Below, piece by piece: positions 1-12,922 of a stretch of DNA of 64,000 bases. Each line of letters begins with the position of its first letter. The stretch's first letter is position 1. This stretch comes from Candidatus Entotheonellaceae bacterium (GTDB lineage: Bacteria > Tectomicrobia > Entotheonellia > Entotheonellales > Entotheonellaceae): NCBI GenBank assembly GCA_965238075.1, contig OZ250173.1:2880001-2944000 (forward strand). Reading direction: 5' to 3'. The notes beneath the pieces were generated by a model. That model was not told where the DNA came from. It ran no database searches and saw nothing but the letters and a program-made list of their open reading frames with translations. The translations under genes and the position numbers were made by a program.

Positions 1-481
1 TTTCGAGCCATTGCATCTCGCCGTGCGACAGCGCCCCGGCTTTGTTTTGGGCTTTCTGTTCCAACCCCAGGGTCTGCAAAGTCGAATTAATTTTGTCGGT
101 ATGGCTGCGGGTCAGGGCACCGAACAGGGTTGCCATCACGTCGCGGCGGAAGCGCAGGGCGAGGGTGAGATTGTCGATGAGCGTGAGATTCTTGAAAACG
201 GTGGGAGTCTGGAATTTACGCCCGATGCCCAGCAAGGTGATCTCGTGTTCCTCAAGTTTGCTGAGGTCGGTTCGCTGGCCGAAGACGACGCGCCCGGTAT
301 CCGGCTTGGCTCTGCCGCAGATGACGTCTAGCAAGGTCGTTTTGCCGGCCCCGTTGGGACCGATCAAGGCGCGCAGCTCGCCGTGGTCCACGTAAAAATC
401 GACCTCTTTCAGCGCCTGGAAGCCGTCGAACGTGACGGTGATGTCCTCGAGGTACATGATGGTGCCGCGTTGTTGTTCCAT
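1..481 (-). CDS. urtD: Urea/amide ABC transporter ATP-binding subunit (runs off the window edge)
   Basis: Manual translation from ATG 481: MEQQRGTIMYLEDITVTFDGF...LIGPNGAGKTT (Walker A)...GIGRKFQTP...LSHGEMQWLE; follows urtC. Confidence 0.9.
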   Translation of the reverse strand, partial: MEQQRGTIMYLEDITVTFDGFQALKEVDFYVDHGELRALIGPNGAGKTTLLDVICGRAKPDTGRVVFGQRTDLSKLEEHEITLLGIGRKFQTPTVFKNLTLIDNLTLALRFRRDVMATLFGALTRSHTDKINSTLQTLGLEQKAQNKAGALSHGEMQWLE

Positions 482-494
482 GTGTCGCTCCCTG

Positions 495-1658
495 TCAGTC
501 GTCGGACCGGCTAACGGTTGACGCCGGCTGCTCGCTCGGGCGTGGCACCGGTTCTGGGCGACGGGCCGGAGCGCCGGCAAGCCGAGCGCGCAGCCGCCGG
601 ATGCCCCGGCGGCACTGGCTGGGGATGCCGACGATGCCATCGGGGAAGAACAAGACGACGGCCACGAACAGACCGCCCAGGATCACCGGCCACCATTCCG
701 GAAAGCGAGTCGTCAGAACGCTGCGTGCCGCATTGATGCCCACCGCACCGATGATCGCACCGATGAGGCTGTTACGCCCGCCGGTTGCGACCCAGACGAC
801 GATTTCCAGCGACGGCAACACCCCGATCTGACTGGGCGTGATAATACCGACTTGCGGCACATACAAAGCGCCCGCCAAGCCGCCCAACGCCGCGGCCACG
901 GCAAAAATGAAGATCTTGTACGAGGCGACCGGATAGCCCAGAAACCGCAGGCGCTGTTCCTGGTCGCGCATGGCGGTCAGCACCAGCCCCATTTTCGAGC
1001 CCACCAGCCAGCGGCAGATGAAAAAACTGACGACGAGCAGAAGCGCGGTGCACAGGTACAACCCGCGTTGTGTGCTCGGCTCGCTCAGCGGATAACCCAG
1101 CACGCTCTTGAAATCCGTGAGACCGTTCGTGCCGCCGAGGTTGAGTTCGTTGCGGTTGAACATCAGCCACGTGGCGAAAGCCATGGCCTGGGTCAGAATG
1201 GCGAAGTAGGTGCCGCCGACGCGCCGCCGAAACGTCAGAAAGCCGATAATGGTGGCGGCTACGACCGGCAACAGCAGGGCCGCGGCCAGGGCGAAGGGCA
1301 GGGAGTGGAAGGGTTTCCAGTACAACGGCAGCTGGGTCACCTGGTTCCACACCATGAAGTCGGGAACGGCCTCTCCGTACACGCCTTTGCCGCTCGATTC
1401 GAGCATCAGGTACATGCCGAATGAGTAGGCGCCAATGCCGAAGAAGATGGCTTGCCCCAGACTCAAGATGCCGGAGAACCCCCAGATGAGGGCCATGCCC
1501 ATGGCCAGTATGGACAGCGACAGGTATTTACCGAACAGGTTGAGGTAGTAGTCGGAGATGTGCCCGGAGGCGTTCAGCAGCGGCAAGCCGATAAGCAGAA
1601 TAACTGCGAGCAGGGTGCCTGGCAGCAGCGCTTCTTTCCAAGCTGAGGTGGGTTTCAT
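495..1658 (-). CDS. urtC: Urea ABC transporter permease
   Basis: LivM-type permease, WG.SG.LSLGQ..FFG.GAY, VPDFM.W, GGTNG motifs; operon position. Confidence 0.9.
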   Translation of the reverse strand: MKPTSAWKEALLPGTLLAVILLIGLPLLNASGHISDYYLNLFGKYLSLSILAMGMALIWGFSGILSLGQAIFFGIGAYSFGMYLMLESSGKGVYGEAVPDFMVWNQVTQLPLYWKPFHSLPFALAAALLLPVVAATIIGFLTFRRRVGGTYFAILTQAMAFATWLMFNRNELNLGGTNGLTDFKSVLGYPLSEPSTQRGLYLCTALLLVVSFFICRWLVGSKMGLVLTAMRDQEQRLRFLGYPVASYKIFIFAVAAALGGLAGALYVPQVGIITPSQIGVLPSLEIVVWVATGGRNSLIGAIIGAVGINAARSVLTTRFPEWWPVILGGLFVAVVLFFPDGIVGIPSQCRRGIRRLRARLAGAPARRPEPVPRPSEQPASTVSRSDD

Positions 1659-1676
1659 GGTCGCGGTTGACCTTCC

Positions 1677-3350
1677 TTATCGCAGCGCCCCTGCGGCCGT
1701 GCGTTCCTTGGCCGGGAAGAGACCCGTGGGTCTGATCTGCAGGAAAATGATGACCAGCACGAGAATGCTGACCTTGGCGTAAACGGCGGCGGCGGTGCCG
1801 GCGATCAGCGGCTCCAGAAGTTTGTTCGACATGCCGATGACGCCGGACGCCAGGACCGTGCCGAACAGTTTGCCGACCCCGCCCAGCACCACGACCATGA
1901 ATGAATCGACAATATAGGTCTTGCCTACCTCCGGGTCCACAGTGCCGATGAGGCTCAAAGCGCAACCCGCCAGCCCCGCCAAAGCGGTACCGAGCGCGAA
2001 GGTGAAGGCGTCAACTTTGCGTGTGGAAATGCCGATGCAGGCGGCCATGTCGCGATTCTGCATCACCGAACGGATGCGCAGGCCGACGTTGGAGCGATAC
2101 AGCAGCAGATACACCATGGCAAGGGCGAACACCGACAGGGCAATGATGAAGAGCCGGCTATAGGGGAAAATGAGCCCTGGCATGACCTCCCAGCCACCGC
2201 GAAACCAGGTGGGCGGACTGACGCTCGTTTGATCACCGAAATAAAGACGCGCGCCCTGTTGCAGCACCATGCCGATACCCCACGTGATGAGTAGGCTTTC
2301 GAGCGGGCGGCCATACAGGAAACGCAGGATGCCGCGTTCCATCAACAGGCCGACACAGCCCGCCGTTAGGATGGATAAGGGCAGAGCAAAGATGAAGTAA
2401 TAGTCAAGATAATCCGGCAGGTGTGAGGTGAAGAATTCTTGCAGCACGTAGGCGGTGTACGAGCCGATCATCAGCATTTCGCCATGCGCCATGTTGATGA
2501 TGCCCATCAGTCCGAAGGTAATCGCGAGTCCCAGGCTCATGATCAGCAGGACGGAGGCAAGACTCACGCCGTTGAAGATGTAGCCGACGCTGTTGCGAAC
2601 AAGCAGAAAATTCTCAATGGTTTCGACGGCTCCGATGACCGCGGCCCGTACTTGGGGGTCGGGCTCCTGCTGGCGCATTTCGCGTAAGCGGCTCAGCGCG
2701 GCTTCCGAGCGCCTGTCACCGAAGTAGTTGACGGCCGCGCGCCGTGCCTGCGCTTCCGGCGCGAACAATTGCAATTTGTTGACGGCCTCGATGAGGACGT
2801 TACGCACCACGGTATCCGGTTCCGCGTCGCGCGCCTTTGTCAGGATGGGAATGAGGGATACGTCGCGCATATTCCCCAGGCGCAGAGCGGTCGAGCGCCG
2901 CGCACCCGGATCCGATGCAAAAAGTGCGATAACGTCAAGAGCGCGTTGCACTAGCGGGATGTTTTCTTCCTCTAAGGGGACCTGCTCAAGACCCTCCTCG
3001 GGGAAAATGGCCTCACCGGCGTCGTCGAGCAGCGGGGTGCCGGCGAGGTCTACAAAAACCCCATCGTCGGTGAAGATGAGGAAGCCTTCCGGCCAGCGAT
3101 ACAGGGCGCCTTCCTTCAGGGCCTGGAGCAGGCCCCGGAAGGCCGGGTCGGCGAGGTCACGGATGTGCTCGAGGGTGGCCCGCTGGGTAGCGAGCGTGGC
3201 GAGGTCCTGGGCATAGTCGGCGGGCGTGTCCGCCGCGACCGACGCGTTGGGCAACGCGCCGCCGGCACAGCACACGACCAGCAGGAAGGTCAGGATGCGT
3301 AACAATTCAGGTCTCCGCGTGCTTGAAATAGTTACGGGGGAATCCCTCAA
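1677..3350 (-). CDS. urtB: Urea ABC transporter permease with N-terminal HEAT-like extension
   Basis: GLAITFGLMGIINMAHGE, YGRPLESLL.TWG, IVDSFMVVVLGGVG motifs. Confidence 0.9.
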   Translation of the reverse strand: MRDSPVTISSTRRPELLRILTFLLVVCCAGGALPNASVAADTPADYAQDLATLATQRATLEHIRDLADPAFRGLLQALKEGALYRWPEGFLIFTDDGVFVDLAGTPLLDDAGEAIFPEEGLEQVPLEEENIPLVQRALDVIALFASDPGARRSTALRLGNMRDVSLIPILTKARDAEPDTVVRNVLIEAVNKLQLFAPEAQARRAAVNYFGDRRSEAALSRLREMRQQEPDPQVRAAVIGAVETIENFLLVRNSVGYIFNGVSLASVLLIMSLGLAITFGLMGIINMAHGEMLMIGSYTAYVLQEFFTSHLPDYLDYYFIFALPLSILTAGCVGLLMERGILRFLYGRPLESLLITWGIGMVLQQGARLYFGDQTSVSPPTWFRGGWEVMPGLIFPYSRLFIIALSVFALAMVYLLLYRSNVGLRIRSVMQNRDMAACIGISTRKVDAFTFALGTALAGLAGCALSLIGTVDPEVGKTYIVDSFMVVVLGGVGKLFGTVLASGVIGMSNKLLEPLIAGTAAAVYAKVSILVLVIIFLQIRPTGLFPAKERTAAGALR

Positions 3351-3377
3351 GGAACTCCCCCGCGCACAGATCTTTAT

Positions 3378-4730
3378 TTATCGCTGAGACAGCCAGGCGC
3401 GGTCGCCATTCACCATATCATAGGTTCCCAGGCCGTCGCCGCTCCAATCGCAGGCCCGACCGGGATAGGTCAACTCGCTCCACGGCAGGGGCCGCACCCA
3501 CTCCTTGCTCTTCCACACGACGTCGAACTGACCATCTTCGCGGATTTTGCCGATGTAGACCGGCTTCCAGGTGTGATGGTTCTTCTCGTCGACCTTGTAA
3601 TTGCCGACGGGGCTGCTGACCGTCAGACCTTCCAGCGCCTTCAGAACCGGTTCGACGTCCGTGCTGCCGGCCTTCTCGACGGCCTGGGCCCACAGTTTGA
3701 CGTGCGTGTAGGCGTGCATCATCGGATCATCGGTCACGCACTGTTTGTCGGGGATGCCGCGCTTTTCGCACCATTTCTTGTACGCTTTCACCCACTTGAA
3801 GTTCTGCGGGGACTTCAGCGACATGTAGTAGTTCCAGGAAGCGAGATGGCCGGCCAGGGGCTTGACGTCCAGGGTCTGCAATTCGACCTCGGCAAAGCTG
3901 AACGAAATCACCGGACAGGTGTCGGCCGTGATGCCCTGATTGGCCAGTTCCTTGAAGAACGGCACATTGCTGTCGCCGTTGATGGTGTTGATCACAGCGC
4001 CATCACCGCCGGCACAGAAGCTTTTGATCTTGCCAACGATGGTCTGGTAATCCTGATGGTGAAACGGCGTGTATTCCTCAGCGATGCCGTCCTCCATGAC
4101 GCCCTTGGCCTTGGTGAGGTAGAGCCGCAGGATTTTGTTCGTGGTGCGCGGATAGACGTAGTCCGTACCTATAAGGTAGAAGCGCTTTTTGCCGCCGCCT
4201 TCCGGGCTCATCAGGTAATCCACCGCGGGAGAGGCTTGCTGGTTGATGGTCGCACCGGTATAGATGACGTTCTTGGAGCACTCTTCACCCTCGTACTGGA
4301 CAGGGTAGAAAAGGAGGCCGTTGTACTGCTCAAACACCGGCAGCACGGACTTGCGGCTGACCGAGGTCCAACAGCCAAAAACCGTCGCCACCTCATCTTG
4401 CGTTAGGAGCTTTTTGGCCTTTTCGGCAAAGAGGTCCCAATTCGAGGCGGGATCTTCCACGATCGGCTCGACAGGGCGCCCCAACACCCCACCAGCCTCG
4501 TTAATTTCCTCGATGGCCATGAGGATAATTTCCTTGAGGGGTCCCTCGCTGATGGCCATGGTGCCGCTCAGCGAATGCAACACGCCTACTTTGATGGGCT
4601 CCTGTGCCATGGCGCCGGTGCCCATCAGTCCCGCCAACAGGATAAGCGAGAGCCCGAGGGTGCAGGCCGTGCGTTTCACGGCCTGCCATTTGTGCGTGCG
4701 GGCCCAGCCCGCGGTGTGCAAGTTGGTCAC
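3378..4730 (-). CDS. urtA: Urea ABC transporter substrate-binding protein
   Basis: Signal peptide; IKVGVLHSLSGTMAISE, FGCWTSVSRKSVLP, LFYPVQYEG, GTDYVYPRTTN motifs. Confidence 0.92.
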   Translation of the reverse strand: MTNLHTAGWARTHKWQAVKRTACTLGLSLILLAGLMGTGAMAQEPIKVGVLHSLSGTMAISEGPLKEIILMAIEEINEAGGVLGRPVEPIVEDPASNWDLFAEKAKKLLTQDEVATVFGCWTSVSRKSVLPVFEQYNGLLFYPVQYEGEECSKNVIYTGATINQQASPAVDYLMSPEGGGKKRFYLIGTDYVYPRTTNKILRLYLTKAKGVMEDGIAEEYTPFHHQDYQTIVGKIKSFCAGGDGAVINTINGDSNVPFFKELANQGITADTCPVISFSFAEVELQTLDVKPLAGHLASWNYYMSLKSPQNFKWVKAYKKWCEKRGIPDKQCVTDDPMMHAYTHVKLWAQAVEKAGSTDVEPVLKALEGLTVSSPVGNYKVDEKNHHTWKPVYIGKIREDGQFDVVWKSKEWVRPLPWSELTYPGRACDWSGDGLGTYDMVNGDRAWLSQR

Positions 4731-4809: not shown

Positions 4810-4907
4810 CTGCGGATGGGGATGCCAAAGCCGTTGTCTGGGGCTGTCCGCCTTGGGTGCGAGACGCGGTAAGGAGTGACCAGCACTCTCTAAGGATGGC
4901 ATTAAAG

Positions 4908-4924
4908 TAACAACGGGATTGTTA
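4908..4924. promoter_or_regulatory. Palindromic candidate activator site TAACAA-N5-TTGTTA
   Basis: Perfect 6-bp inverted repeat about 100 bp upstream of the sigma-54 motif. Confidence 0.4.
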
Positions 4925-5015
4925 GGCGAGGGACCATTTTTGTACGAATCGACATCTTTGTAAGTTTTGGTTTCCTTAAGGTGAGGCCCCGTGGATTGGG
5001 AGGCACCTCAGGGTG

Positions 5016-6287
5016 TCAAAGCAAGTCGAGGCTGGGCGTGATGACCAGATGCAGGCGTCGATGGGCCTCGCGCAGGGTCTGTTCGACCGCCTGTGGGGTT
5101 TCACCGCGGGCAAAAATGAACCCGGGGTAACTGGCGCCCTCGGGGAAGGGCTGGAGTTTCTCATGCGGCTTGGCGGTGATCACAACATCTTCGATGCCGG
5201 GAAGGCTGAGTGCCGCGTCCAGGCCCGTCACATGTTTGAAAAAACCAGCGCGGGGAATGGGTAGCATCATAGTTCCGGCAGCAGCCTGCTCGCGTTTCAG
5301 AGAGGGCAGAGGGAGGCCGCACGCGTGACGGATGAGCAGCTCTTCAAGGGACATCCCGGTCCCAAAGCGCAGCGAGCGGCTTCACAAGCCGCCGATGGGC
5401 CGGGCGGCGAGTTCGAGGAGCCAGGGGCCTTGGCCGTTGACCCGAAATTCGGCGTGCAAAGGACCGTGGCAGAGACCCAGGGTAAGGGCTGCCTGTTCGG
5501 CGCAGCGGACGATCTCGGCCTGCAGGTCCGCACTGAGACGGGAAGGGGTGATGTAGAGGGTTTCTTCAAAAAAAGGACCGTTCAGCGGGTCGGGCTTATC
5601 AAACAGGGCCAACGGTTGCAGACGGCCCGCGGTTAACAGACCTTCCAGGGCGACCTCGGCACCGGGAATGAAACTTTCGATGAGGATCCCTTCGTTGGCT
5701 TCATCTTGTTTCTGGCGTATTTCATGCCGTTCCAGCAAGGCGCGCAACCGAAGGAAGGCGGCAATAAATTCGGCCGGGGTATTGGCCCGCATGACACCGC
5801 GACTCGCCGACAGGGCGAGCGGCTTAACGACACATGGGTACGGAACCTCGTGTTGCACGAGACGGGGGTCGGTTTGCATCGGGAAACACATAAAAGCCGG
5901 CACTTGCGCAAAAGTCGCCTGCAGGCGCTGGCGCATGAGGTATTTGTTGTGGCTGGACAGCACGGCGTCCGGTGGATTGTGCAGCAAACCCAACTCGCGG
6001 CTCGCTTTCGCGGCGCTGAGAAGAGGGGTGTCACCCACGGGGAGAATGGCGGCGACGGGTTGCTGCCCAGCAACATCGACGATGCGCCGTGCGGCTTCCT
6101 GTGGGCGCTCAAACCGTAGCGGCACGGCATCGTCTTCCCAGGGATCGTCCAGAACATCACAGCGGTCGCTGCCGAGCACCGTTTCCACGCCGAGTTGCTG
6201 AGCCGTCCGTATGAATTCTCGTGCCTCATACCCTGTCGTCGTATACAGGAGCATGAGCCGGGAACGGCCGACGTCGGGTGTTGTCAT
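5016..6287 (-). CDS. ATP-grasp (L-amino-acid-ligase-like) protein, probable selenoprotein, 423 aa, UGA 5382-5384 read as Sec
   Basis: Track ORFs 5382..6656 and 5016..5354 share a frame and are separated by one TGA (ELAARPIGGL-U-SRSLRFG); NKYLMR, YPCVVKP..LSASRGV, ESFIPG.E, HAEFR motifs; SECIS-like hairpin follows. Confidence 0.8.
5348..5363 (-). promoter_or_regulatory. Candidate bacterial SECIS for the ATP-grasp UGA
   Basis: GGGAC-CGGGAU-GUCCC upper stem-loop, loop 23 nt after UGA, with an extendable lower stem (GCUGCGCUUU/GAAGAGCUGC). Confidence 0.6.
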
Positions 6288-6339
6288 CCTGATTTCCCCA
6301 GACTGTGCGCATGGCCAGAGTACCAAGAAGACCTTGGTT

Positions 6340-7740
6340 CTAGAACGGAGCAACCTGCTCCTCGGTGGGTTCCGCTCAACAATACCACGGTTCATCAAGG
6401 TAAGGAACGGGCCCACGGGCTGGCGGGGCAACGGGGGCAGGCACCAGCGGAGCGGGAATTTGGGCGGCCTTGTGGGCGGCGTGCCAGAGGCGTTCAAATA
6501 TCTCATAGCGGCCGGCGCCTTCCGTCTCACCGCTTTGGACCAATTGGAGCGCCTCCGTGCAGAGGCCATCCATCCGTACGTCGGGATGTTCCCAGCGGTA
6601 CGACAGGGCGTCGGCGTCGAATTCCCGCAGCGACAGACCCATTTCGGGCAGGTCAAGCAGTTTGGAGCCGTCAGGGATCAGCAAGCGCATGGCGAGTTGG
6701 ATGGGTGCGACGTGTTCGATCAGACCTTGCGTGGCGATTACGGTCAGTAAGTCGATATAGTCGGGCAAAAAGGTCCAGGGCATGAAGGCGACAAAGGTCG
6801 GATTGAGGCAAATTTCGGCTTGCCTGCACCGGGCCAGAGCCTGGAGAAAATCCTGTCGGGTGTGGCCTTTATCGAGCAGACGCAGAACGCCATCCTGGAC
6901 GGACTCCACGGCGCTCGTCACCATCAGGCAGCCGGTTTGGCGGAGGGTGGGCAGATGCTCGTCATACCGCAACAGGTGTTCTATCTTGATGGTGACGTCG
7001 TAGGTGAGGCTGGGGAACTCCCGGTGCAGGTCATGCACCAACGGCACGGCGTGGCCGATACCGTTGAAAAAATCGGGGTCGCCAAAGGTCACGTGCTCGG
7101 CGCCGGCCGCGACCTGGCGCCGGATATCTTCCAGGACGACGTCCCTCTGCACGATGCGAAAACGGCCCTCATAGACCGGCACGATCGGACAATGGCGACA
7201 GAAGTGTTTGCAGCCGCGGCTGGCTTCCGTGTAGCCGACGACGTGTGACCGCTCGCCTATTTTGAGTTGGGCGTAAACTGGCAGGGGGGGTAAATCGCGC
7301 CGATCAGGTACCTGAAACTGTTGGCGATCCAGGGAAGTGACGACTTCCGGCTGTTGGGCAGGGGGTGTGGAATCTGTCTGAAGGCGTTGCACGAGTCGTA
7401 ACAGCCCAGATTCAAATTCCCCACCGAGCAGGGTGGCGGCCCCCAGTTCGCGTAACAATCGGTCATTCATGGGGGCGTAAAGGCCATAGAAGCAGAGGTG
7501 AGCTTGCGGGTTAAGGGTCTTGACATGTTTCGCAACCTGGATGGCAATCCGCGTTGCGGTGTGCATGGGGATGTAGAAGGCCACAAGGTCGGCCGCCAGA
7601 ATGGCCTCACGGTCCAGGCGACTGCGTGACAAATCCTGGCACCGAACCGTCGCTCCTGCCTGTCGTAGCCAAGCGGCAGGGGAAGCCAGGCCAAAAGGCT
7701 GCCGTCCCAATTCATAGGTTGCGAGGAGTACAACACGCAC
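6340..7740 (-). CDS. CUAEP-tail B12-binding-like/radical SAM selenoprotein, 466 aa, UGA 6376-6378 read as Sec
   Basis: GTG start MRVVLLATYELGRQP; CxxxCxxC motif (GCKHFCRHC); C-terminus reads EPWYC-U-AEPTEEQVAPF-TAG, matching the CUAEP/CCAEP-tail family name. Confidence 0.88.
6347..6361 (-). promoter_or_regulatory. Candidate bacterial SECIS for the radical SAM UGA
   Basis: GGAGCA-GGU-UGCUCC 6-bp hairpin, G-starting loop 20 nt after UGA; GAAC/GUUC lower stem. Confidence 0.7.
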
Positions 7741-7771: not shown

Positions 7772-8092
7772 CTAGCCCTTGCCCATTGGCGGAACGTACC
7801 CTGGCGGCAGGGCAGCGCCTTCGCCGAAAAAGAATTCTTCCATTTGCTGACGGATGAACTCGTCGGCTTGTGGGTCCATGACATTCAGACGGTATTCATT
7901 TAGAATCATCGTCAGGAAGCCTTTCCACAATTCCCAAGCCTCCATGGAGATGTTTTCATAGATACGTTGACGTAATTCAGCCCCTCCCATCGATTCAGTC
8001 ATTTCCAAGGCAATGCCGCCCTGAAGATCGTCCTCATCAATACCAGGAGCCTCTTTTTGAAGCTTTGTGCAGTAGACGAATCGTTGCGTCAT
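7772..8092 (-). CDS. yggX: Fe(II)-trafficking / oxidative damage protection protein (YggX family)
   Basis: N-terminal V.C.KL.KEA.G, RIYENIS.EAW..W...TM.LNEYRL, MEEFFFG. Confidence 0.85.
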   Translation of the reverse strand: MTQRFVYCTKLQKEAPGIDEDDLQGGIALEMTESMGGAELRQRIYENISMEAWELWKGFLTMILNEYRLNVMDPQADEFIRQQMEEFFFGEGAALPPGYVPPMGKG

Positions 8093-10882: not shown

Positions 10883-10965
10883 GGGGAGGTTCCCGAGCGG
10901 TCAAAGGGGACAGACTGTAAATCTGTTGGCTGATGTCTTCGGAGGTTCGAATCCTCCCCTCCCCA
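10883..10965 (+). tRNA. tRNA-Tyr(GTA)
   Basis: GGGGAGG/CCTCCCC acceptor stem, loop CTGTAAA, long variable arm, TTCGAAT. Confidence 0.95.
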
Positions 10966-10994
10966 TTGGATGATGTGGGTGTTGGCGACACGTT

Positions 10995-11068
10995 GCGGGA
11001 ATAGCTCAGTTGGCTAGAGCATCAGCCTTCCAAGCTGAGGGTCGCGGGTTCGAGTCCCGTTTCCCGCT
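10995..11068 (+). tRNA. tRNA-Gly(TCC)
   Basis: GCGGGAA/TTCCCGC acceptor stem, loop CTTCCAA. Confidence 0.95.
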
Positions 11069-11098
11069 TTCTTATTGTGTGATGTCGTTTCGGTGAAC

Positions 11099-11171
<73 letters not shown>

Positions 11172-11253
11172 CCTTTTCGCAGCCACTGTAGATTATTTTC
11201 TGCATTGTAATTTCTGGAACACAGCATATTCGACACAGAGGGGGATTGAGTTA

Positions 11254-12447
11254 ATGTCGAAGGCGAAATTCAAGCGTAGCAAGCCGCACGTCAACGTCGG
11301 GACGATCGGTCACGTAGACCACGGCAAGACGACGCTCACGTCTGCCATAACGCAGGTACTGGCAGCGCAAGGCAAGGCGGACTATGTGCCCTTTGACCAG
11401 ATCGACAAGGCGCCCGAGGAAAAAGCCCGCGGCATCACCATTGCTACTGCACACGTGGAATACGAAAGCGAGAACCGCCACTACGCCCACGTCGATTGTC
11501 CGGGTCACGCCGACTACGTGAAGAACATGATCACGGGTGCAGCGCAGATGGACGGGGCGATCTTGGTGGTGAGTGCCGCCGATGGCGCGATGCCGCAGAC
11601 GCGCGAGCATATCCTGTTGGCGCGTCAGGTTGGGGTGCCCTACATCGTGGTGTTCATGAACAAAGTGGACATGGTGGACGATGAAGAGTTGCTGGACTTG
11701 GTGGAGTTGGAGTTGCGGGAGTTGCTTAGCAAGTACGAATTTCCTGGCGACGACATTCCGATTATCCGGGGCAGTGCACTGCAGGCCTTGGAGAGTGGCG
11801 ATCCGAGTGCTTCGGAGAGCGCTTGCGTCTTTGAGTTAATGGGTGCGATTGATGAATACGTGCCGACGCCGCAGCGCGCCATAGACCGGCCGTTTCTGAT
11901 GCCCGTGGAGGACGTATTCACGATATCGGGTCGAGGGACGGTGGCGACGGGTCGTATTGAGCGTGGCGTGGTGACGGTAGGCGACGATGTGGAGATCGTG
12001 GGGATGAAGGAGACGCACAAGACGGTGGCGACGGGCGTGGAGATGTTTCGGAAGATATTGGACCGTGGCGAGGCAGGTGATAACATAGGGGTATTGTTGC
12101 GCGGTGTGAAGCGCGATGAGATAGAGCGTGGTCAGGTATTGGCGAAGCCGGGTTCGATTACGCCACACACGCGTTTTCAGGCAGAGGTGTACGTGTTGTC
12201 GAAAGACGAGGGAGGTCGTCACACGCCGTTTTTCAATGGCTACCGGCCGCAGTTTTACTTTCGCACGACGGATGTGACGGGTGTGGTGACATTGCCCTCG
12301 GGTACGGAGATGGTGATGCCTGGGGACAACGTTGGCGTGGAGGTGGAGTTAATCACGCCGATTGCTTTGGAGAAAGAGTTGCGCTTTGCGATCCGTGAGG
12401 GCGGCCGGACGGTAGGGGCGGGCGTCGTTAGTGAAATACTGGCGTAG
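11254..12447 (+). CDS. tuf: Elongation factor Tu (copy 1)
   Basis: [28 protein letters not shown]. Confidence 0.99.
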
Positions 12448-12528
12448 CTTTCTTCTAGCTTTGTGATCACGTTGGTGAGTAATCGCCTCTTGGTGTGGAT
12501 GTGCCTGGAGATAACGTAAGGAGTACCC

Positions 12529-12678
12529 GTGCGAGATTTGGCTACTTTGGCGTGTGTCGAATGCAGGCGCCGCAACTACACGACGACGAAAAATAAGCGA
12601 CGCACTCCTCAGAGATTCGAGTTCAAAAAATACTGCCGCTTTTGTCGTCAGCATCAGCTCCATAGGGAAACGAGGTAA
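12529..12678 (+). CDS. rpmG: 50S ribosomal protein L33 (four-Cys type; absent from the ORF track)
   Basis: Manual translation [49 protein letters not shown]. Confidence 0.95.
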
Positions 12679-12721
12679 GCTGAACGTCAAGTTGCGGGGA
12701 AATTGGGAATCTCAAAACTGT

Positions 12722-12794
12722 AGGCCAGTAGCTCGAACGGTAGAGCACCGGACTCCAAATCCGGGTGATGGGGGTTCGAATCCCTCCTGGCCTG
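12722..12794 (+). tRNA. tRNA-Trp(CCA)
   Basis: AGGCCAG/CTGGCCT acceptor stem, loop CTCCAAA; usual position before secE. Confidence 0.95.
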
Positions 12795-12922
12795 CTTGAA
12801 TTAAAGAAACAGTGTGTGGTTCCCTGTAGCAAACAAATCGCACAGGCGACCAAAGAAAACGCGTCCGCCCTTACTATTTTCGCTGGCTAAGATACCCTCG
12901 TGCTACACTAAAGGTTGCTGCT

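Follow-up and report, generated by a model that had tools for sequence, protein, structure and literature searches.

A candidate selenocysteine-containing ATP-grasp ligase encoded beside a radical SAM selenoprotein gene in a Candidatus Entotheonellaceae genome

The stretch of DNA analyzed here (hereafter the window) spans 64,000 nucleotides (nt) of a Candidatus Entotheonellaceae bacterium (assembly GCA_965238075.1, contig OZ250173.1, positions 2,880,001 to 2,944,000) and carries on its minus strand a gene of 423 codons plus stop (5016..6287) for a protein resembling ATP-grasp L-amino acid ligases, a description that rests on the open reading frame (ORF), Pfam domains and an AF2 model. The frame starts with the ATG at 6287..6285 and contains a single internal stop, the TGA at 5384..5382, which is codon 302. 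A first-pass annotation of the letters had placed this TGA in an ARPIGGL-U-SRS context, had the frame run 121 codons beyond it to 5016, and considered the continuation a plausible C-terminal domain. The exact text is indeed present on the minus strand (GCC CGG CCC ATC GGC GGC TTG TGA AGC CGC TCG, A-A-R-P-I-G-G-L-TGA-S-R-S), and 121 further codons follow in the same frame up to the final TGA stop at 5018..5016, giving 423 amino acids when codon 302 is counted as selenocysteine (Sec, U302). We propose this assignment for the in-frame UGA (5382..5384, minus strand) from aligned Cys and TGA codons, from the genomes of orthologues and from other contigs. The read-through product matches ATP-grasp_N (PF18130; 30 bits, cut-off 27), ATP-grasp_4 (PF13535; residues 149-303, 105.5 bits, cut-off 27) and LAL_C2 (PF18603; residues 341-416, 61.1 bits, cut-off 29.4), the last of these being the anticipated C-terminal domain. 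The domain architecture thus extends across codon 302, and the TGA splits what is otherwise a normal arrangement. In public records the TGA-type protein is stored as a 301-amino acid fragment, and one truncated member is named only 'ATP-grasp domain-containing protein'.

The identity of the aligned codon in relatives provides the most direct evidence on how this UGA is used. We gathered 185 loci, 80 from species genomes, 25 from relatives of the window's genome and 80 from metagenomes, a set that was not de-duplicated and in which a few contigs are present twice (e.g., L045 = L087). All 185 loci cover the column, which holds Cys in 173 (TGC in 105, TGT in 68), TGA in 12, and nothing else. The first-pass annotation had predicted Cys at this position in homologues, and had named Trp, Arg, Gly or a variable residue, or the absence of TGA from every other genome, as outcomes that would speak against selenocysteine; the column is restricted to Cys or TGA, and TGA recurs in nine species-representative genomes, which belong to three genera of one family, and in two metagenome contigs. 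In the nine genomes the TGA-form orthologues are 100-67% identical, and the one stop found inside each of them is a TGA at this codon. In a FastTree phylogeny of 184 rows (the duplicate L045 was dropped), the 11 TGA rows formed one clade with a support of 100, which requires one state change. The TGA, its codon position and the hairpin described below are shared by every one of the 12 TGA-type loci found, which is more than a chance pattern.

A search of protein databases, which returned at least 8000 matches and from which 120 relatives were listed, led to a concordant picture. Among the matches listed, 30 clusters that are 73-100% identical to the window protein are fragments of about 301 amino acids, and all 30 end in ...IGGL. 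Among these same matches, Cys stands right after the GGL position in 89 of the 90 full-length relatives, the exception being P0036, which has Glu. In the alignment of the 89 full-length homologues with the window protein C302 is invariant, and so is C43. The ligase family is very large and widespread, and its members come from metagenome-assembled genomes labelled Acidobacteriota, Methylomirabilia/NC10, Rokubacteria, Chloroflexota, Poribacteria and Entotheonellaceae. The genome under study holds a second copy of the ligase, a Cys-type paralogue (L101; G000:C1:2400419-2401654) that is 48% identical; its neighbours are uninformative. No radical SAM gene lies in its 1.5-kb flanks, and the same is true of related genomes (L098-L105).

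The consensus of the bacterial selenocysteine insertion sequence (SECIS) is a stem-loop located shortly after the UGA with G in its apical loop. A SECIS-like hairpin, GGGAC-CGGGAU-GUCCC, lies at 5348..5363 on the minus strand (5' arm GGGAC, 5363..5359; loop CGGGAU, 5358..5353; 3' arm GUCCC, 5352..5348), and is conserved in the TGA forms with all five of its base pairs. The first-pass annotation had described a GGGAC/GUCCC hairpin 23 nt after the UGA; the hairpin itself was recovered, but 23 nt is the distance from the A of the UGA to the loop, and the stem starts at 18 nt. The codons that encode it (TTT GGG ACC GGG ATG TCC) are identical in the 12 TGA loci but for an ACC>GCC change in L086, which converts an A-U pair to G-U and keeps the pairing. 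When degenerate codons with a conserved residue were compared in the nine genome orthologues, all 4 in the hairpin were invariant at the nucleotide level, as against 18 of 199 in the whole gene. In 26 Cys homologues that carry a similar F-G-T/A-G-x-S peptide (exactly FGTGMS in 12 of them), the codons vary, third positions included, and the 16-mer is found in none. Complete 5/5 pairing in this register was present in 12/12 TGA forms and in 4/138 Cys forms, a count made on the 150 loci that fit a stricter pattern (35 of the 185 were unmatched and left out). The SECIS-like element proposed in the first-pass annotation is thus conserved at synonymous sites only in the TGA forms.

The gene is under purifying selection on both sides of the TGA, with pairwise ratios of nonsynonymous to synonymous substitution (dN/dS) of 0.09-0.26 downstream and 0.06-0.20 upstream. 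S-R-x-L-R-F-G-T/A-G is conserved across the nine codons that separate the TGA from the ATG of Met312, and codons that keep their residue have changed synonymously at positions 303 (AGC/AGT), 304 (CGC/CGT), 306 (CTG/TTG/CTA/TTA) and 307 (CGC/CGT). Furthermore, the internal stop is TGA in 12/12 TGA-type loci, and the true terminator of the gene differs by genome (TGA, TAG or TAA). Coding constraint, synonymous change and a constant internal TGA together argue against a pseudogene and against re-initiation at Met312. As to the reliability of the letters, 20 public runs from 7 studies hold the stretch, and contigs from 4 runs of 4 studies (2 of them RNA libraries) span 5348-5384 with zero differences there; these same contigs differ from the window elsewhere, mostly at synonymous places. 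The site being identical in independent assemblies, the sequencing error raised in the first-pass annotation as a refuting case is excluded. A nonsense mutation, a pseudogene or an error would look alike in a single genome with one internal stop, and the plain fold of the region, which is not special (see below), would suit such an origin as well. However, the same TGA is seen in nine species genomes, two metagenome contigs and 30 protein clusters among the matches listed, as well as in the contigs of the four runs, and the codons that follow it remain constrained. One faulty assembly shared by all records is excluded, since these are 67-98% identical to the window. We therefore regard an accidental stop as exceedingly improbable.

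The genome encodes the apparatus that a selenocysteine reading demands. It carries a tRNA-Sec with anticodon TCA (73.9 bits, over the curated cut-off) together with selA (606.7 bits), selB (357.7 bits) and selD (318.8 bits), all over their cut-offs, and this machinery backs the reading put forward in the first-pass annotation. TGA is also the commonest stop of the genome, ending 1294 of the 2719 open frames of at least 300 codons, and a codon that is the most frequent terminator is not under general recoding. The latter observation bears on the possibility that the UGA is read as another residue (Cys, Trp or Gly), be it through near-cognate decoding, through suppression or through a lineage-wide change of the code. 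Read-through of that kind would by itself account for the downstream coding constraint, and Cys is the residue of the homologues. Nevertheless, TGA terminates close to half of the long frames and also ends this very gene, the genome has a complete Sec system along with bona fide selenoprotein genes (GrdA, GrdB), simple suppression needs no conserved hairpin at SECIS distance, and TGC or TGT would be one mutation away if Cys were wanted. Decoding as another residue is consequently very unlikely.

A crude scan of the whole genome for an in-frame TGA accompanied by a hairpin with GG in its loop and by coding signal on both sides yielded 510 candidates, among which the ligase site ranked 7th and the site of a neighbouring radical SAM gene ranked 8th. 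Two GrdB genes, GrdA, a rhodanese (Y-U-QGGIR) and, with U-PHC, a DsbA-like protein were likewise in the top 25, and the recovery of textbook selenoproteins shows that the filter suits this organism. The genome is thus rich in selenoprotein genes; the corresponding loci, all outside the window (L209 and L217, GrdB-type; L214, GrdA; L213, rhodanese; L222, DsbA-like, T-U-PHC) each have an in-frame TGA and a hairpin. Pfam searches on 17 scan candidates, these genes among them, revealed one clear false positive, made of two adjacent genes, and the FdhA gene, examined as a second selenoprotein, is without an internal stop. Also noted was L212 (G000:C1:3256183-3257814, plus strand), an ORF with a domain of the Linalool dehydratase/isomerase type (PF18566, 57.8 bits, residues 181-403). 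Its in-frame TGA (genome position 3256960; ...IWPV-U-LSAAG...) lies within the PF18566 span and is followed by a hairpin, and L212 may be a further selenoprotein candidate.

Several observations weigh against the selenocysteine reading of codon 302. The hairpin stem has just 5 bp and no compensatory double change was seen in it, and the four Cys forms that pair fully do so in the same register. Folding of RNA had been suggested as a check in the first-pass annotation; when 76 nt surrounding the site were folded, their stability did not exceed that of shuffled sequences (z = +0.63), a test that is uninformative for an element of only 5 bp. A search of Rfam at E <= 10 over 4900-6500 returned a chance match to mir-132 and no family. 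The hairpin is similar to the ones that GrdA, GrdB and the neighbouring radical SAM gene carry in this genome, a likeness partly built in by the scan filter, which required GG in the loop. The contigs from RNA libraries are long and are no proof of transcription. In P0036 (366 amino acids, 67% identical), GGF-EAAR-LRF stands where the TGA forms have GGL-USR(S/T)-LRF, so the residue may be dispensable, or the record may hold compensating indels; the sequence of P0036 looks like a one-base frame shift over about 12 nt. Finally, a GGGA lies 5 nt before the in-frame ATG of Met312, and part of the nucleotide invariance could for this reason also serve a ribosome-binding site.

This last point leads to a split-gene explanation, according to which the TGA is a true stop and the last 112 codons are translated separately from the ATG at 5354..5352 through the GGGA ribosome-binding site, the two pieces then assembling. 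This in-frame ATG follows the TGA at a distance of 27 nt, the invariant block spans precisely the segment from GGGA to ATG, and gene callers output the 301-amino acid protein that such an arrangement would produce. But invariance extends beyond the ATG to the TCC and the C behind it, which complete the stem, and the nine codons between TGA and ATG keep their residues while changing synonymously and agree with the Cys homologues at each residue. Cys is invariant in the column of the UGA codon, no internal stop other than TGA occurs in loci whose real terminators vary, and the break would fall within the C-domain, right after the catalytic loop. Two separately translated pieces are thus improbable.

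Taken together, these lines of sequence evidence make it very probable that the TGA at 5384..5382 directs SelB-dependent insertion of selenocysteine and that the gene encodes a full-length ligase with Sec302. SelB and Sec-tRNA(Sec) would be recruited by the small hairpin 18 nt downstream of the UGA, and the ribosome would then make a full-length ATP-grasp enzyme of 423 amino acids and L-amino-acid-ligase fold. Sec302 would stand in for a Cys that is invariant in a large uncharacterized ligase family, the switch from Cys to Sec having presumably occurred once, in a lineage related to Entotheonellaceae.

The AF2 model (predicted local distance difference test, pLDDT, 92.3; predicted template modelling score, pTM, 0.90) finds its closest fold match in the ligase BL00235 (3VOT; template modelling score, TM, 0.81/0.83, E 6e-33), followed by BacD/YwfE and RizA. 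E280 and R296 are invariant in the 90 aligned sequences, which have a consensus of E-V-A-A-R at 292-296, and residue 302 follows the E292-x3-R296-x2-G299-G300 loop at position R296+6. A helix of the model starts at residue 300, so Sec302 would be in its first turn. HMMER alignment puts C302 two residues past the W332A site of the BacD entry 3wo1. The position of BacD aligned with C302 is Met334, which we take to be a pocket residue. Among solved ligases, the residue aligned with C302 is Ser or Val in BL00235 (next to a gap of one residue), His in 30vh and Met in BacD. The roles of the loop were carried over by motif from RhiC and RhiM, for which one report describes an E-x3-R loop with a Mg-binding Glu and an Arg that positions the first substrate, the residues concerned being E258, E271 and R275 in RhiC (PMC13579937). 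In solved ligases this Arg places the carboxylate substrate next to the Mg/ATP site. The report on RhiM and RhiC also locates RhiM L291 (R+6) at the entrance of the first-substrate pocket (PMC13579937); its equivalence with residue 302 rests on spacing and not on alignment, which counts against placing Sec302 there with confidence.

Immediately upstream of the ligase, and on the same strand, lies a gene for a B12-binding/radical SAM protein with a CUAEP tail (6340..7740), which belongs to the selenoprotein family NF040546 (631.8 bits, cut-off 500). Its start near 7740 was inferred from the profile alignment, and the long ORF reaches 7884. The Sec codon of this gene is the UGA at 6376..6378 (minus strand) in the tail ...PWYCUAEPTEEQVAPF, and 14 nt after it comes a SECIS hairpin, GGAGC-AGGUU-GCUCC (6347..6361, minus strand), which is kept in relatives and has covarying stems in other phyla (GGGC/GCCC, AGAGC/GCUCU, GGACC/GGUCC). 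Given that the radical SAM gene has its own TGA and is a member of NF040546, two selenoprotein genes stand side by side. Next to them is a gene for a YggX-type Fe(2+)-trafficking protein (7772..8092, minus strand; PF04362, 95.9 bits).

This arrangement recurs. A radical SAM gene with a CU or CC tail was found within the fetched flanks of 97 of the 185 ligase loci, including 10 of the 12 TGA-type loci, where the neighbour is of the CU type (the other two are short contigs). Beside Cys-type ligases, 44 tails were CU and 43 were CC. YggX homologues are the third recurrent member of the neighbourhood (48/80 loci), and NifU/NfuA-type genes recur in 14 loci. Clustering of the flanking ORFs was noisy because of antisense ORFs in GC-rich DNA, and YggX, radical SAM and NifU/NfuA alone stood out. 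Pfam searches on 57 of 101 selected flank ORFs, from 20 of 80 loci, gave DUF169 in three loci, SufB in one, and otherwise varied results; an ArsM-type methyltransferase was not found as a regular neighbour in the loci sampled. Complex prediction for a Cys-type ligase and its CC-tail radical SAM neighbour (the L018 pair) returned a score of 0.00, which speaks neither for nor against binding.

Two long relatives, P0124 and P0125, were considered as fusions of radical SAM protein and ligase and rejected; neither carries the CC/CU tail, and both seem to stem from frame changes close to the radical SAM end. Single long relatives, which count as leads only, fuse the ligase to PSP1 and sulfite reductase (P0127), to a sulfotransferase (P0128) or to FIST (P0129), and in two Poribacteria loci (L032, L033) the gene after the ligase is a FIST gene. 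Such fusions and neighbours hint at a connection with the metabolism or sensing of sulfur. On its downstream side the ligase is directly followed, at 2-4730 of the window (minus strand), by an operon for an ATP-binding cassette (ABC) importer of the urea/branched-chain type. The operon encodes a binding protein (3378-4730), an ATPase and two permeases, of which one has HEAT repeats, and in other genomes it showed no link to the cassette. Further along, at about 10883-12795 (plus strand), tRNA-like matches flank an EF-Tu gene (11254-12447) in the usual tRNA-tuf cluster, with weak matches only to the tRNA-Sec model.

How the ligase and its neighbours might work together can be outlined. The ligase would act together with its radical SAM neighbour, the CUAEP-tail selenoprotein related to the C-As bond former ArsL, and with the YggX iron-handling protein. 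Sec302 may line or guard the substrate pocket and act, as a soft nucleophile or ligand, on an amino acid that bears a heteroatom and is made by the radical SAM enzyme; the ligase would then couple this amino acid to a second amine. With modest confidence, we infer that the ligase acts on the product of the ArsL-like enzyme and that the thiol or selenol at position 302 binds or reacts with the substrate. A more specific proposal, which we offer tentatively and consider rather doubtful, makes Cys/Sec302 part of the working chemistry rather than a passive residue of the pocket, with a thiol or selenol beside the acyl-phosphate site holding a soft heteroatom (As, Se, S or a metal) of an amino acid built by the ArsL-like CU-tail enzyme, or forming a covalent thio- or seleno-ester, or a persulfide or selenosulfide intermediate, perhaps with the invariant Cys43. 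If this were true, the cassette would use selenium to boost the making of an organo-chalcogen or organometalloid amino acid or dipeptide, and the catalytic mode would be one not described for ATP-grasp enzymes.

The window protein can be compared with the solved L-amino acid ligases BL00235 (3VOT), BacD/YwfE (3VMM, 3WNZ, 3WO1) and RizA/RhiM (4WD3), with which it shares the same three-domain fold and the E-x3-R-x2-GG loop. The fold match to BacD has a TM of 0.75-0.76. At sequence level the match to 3VOT reaches 128 bits alone and 225 bits with a family profile, with an identity of just 26%. The protein is not assigned to BacD or DdaF, scoring 40.5 bits against the BacD equivalog (NF053745, cut-off 850) and 29.1 bits against the DdaF equivalog (NF041595, cut-off 840). 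Moreover, Cys or Sec at R+6 and Cys43 are invariant in the window's family, whereas the solved ligases have no Cys where C302 aligns. Sec is not known from any ligase of this type that has been solved or described. NCBIfam offers no model specific to the ligase, the best match being 100.9 bits against a cut-off of 625. The full-text literature searched contained no selenoprotein of the ATP-grasp or amino acid ligase type, a search that left subscription papers and supplementary family lists outside its reach, so that an earlier listing is possible. Within that scope, NCBIfam and the literature fit the view of the first-pass annotation that the ATP-grasp ligases are not a known selenoprotein family.

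The radical SAM family NF040546 offers a close parallel. It resides in the same cassette and the same genomes as the ligase, occurs with either Cys or Sec, and carries behind its UGA a short, GC-rich hairpin whose loop contains GG. It differs in having another fold, in being an already listed selenoprotein family, and in that its Sec form is widespread, whereas that of the ligase is confined to one clade. In the passage of the preprint that deals with NF040546, the family is called uncharacterized and no ATP-grasp partner is mentioned (Haft 2022, 10.1101/2022.07.06.499078). The nearest named relative of the radical SAM neighbour is ArsL (NF040542; 275.9 bits, under the cut-off of 450). According to a report on ArsL, As(III) is bound by a C-terminal CCxxC, and S-adenosylmethionine (SAM) donates its 3-amino-3-carboxypropyl group (bioRxiv 10.64898/2026.04.29.721666). 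The tail of the neighbour is CU/CC-AEP, and that of ArsL is RCCLKC. The arsQML cluster, as described in the abstract of PMC8552651, has no ligase. It is the kinship of the neighbour with ArsL that leads to the idea of a cassette making a heteroatom-bearing amino acid.

These comparisons indicate what the locus would contribute. An ATP-dependent ligase fold would be added to the list of selenoproteins, two selenoproteins would be joined in one conserved cassette with an ArsL-like radical SAM enzyme, and a systematic annotation error would be corrected, given that 30/30 clusters of this kind among the matches listed are stored as 301-amino acid fragments. The locus also points experiments to one defined residue for mutagenesis and to one defined enzyme pair whose reconstitution could reveal the product. 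Insertion of selenocysteine comes at a high cost, and the residue is in nearly all cases retained at places where its chemistry counts, which marks residue 302 as functionally central in the ligase family. With GrdA, GrdB and the Sec-rhodanese of its own genome, the ligase shares an in-frame UGA, Cys homologues, a hairpin soon after the UGA and, by prediction, dependence on selA, selB, selD and tRNA-Sec. Those proteins, however, are redox or sulfur-transfer proteins, and the ligase has the fold of an ATP-dependent carboxylate-amine ligase, a fold that the literature searched does not report among them. What the locus displays therefore appears to be the ordinary Sec/Cys logic of selenoproteins, in a fold and a reaction class where it has not been described before.

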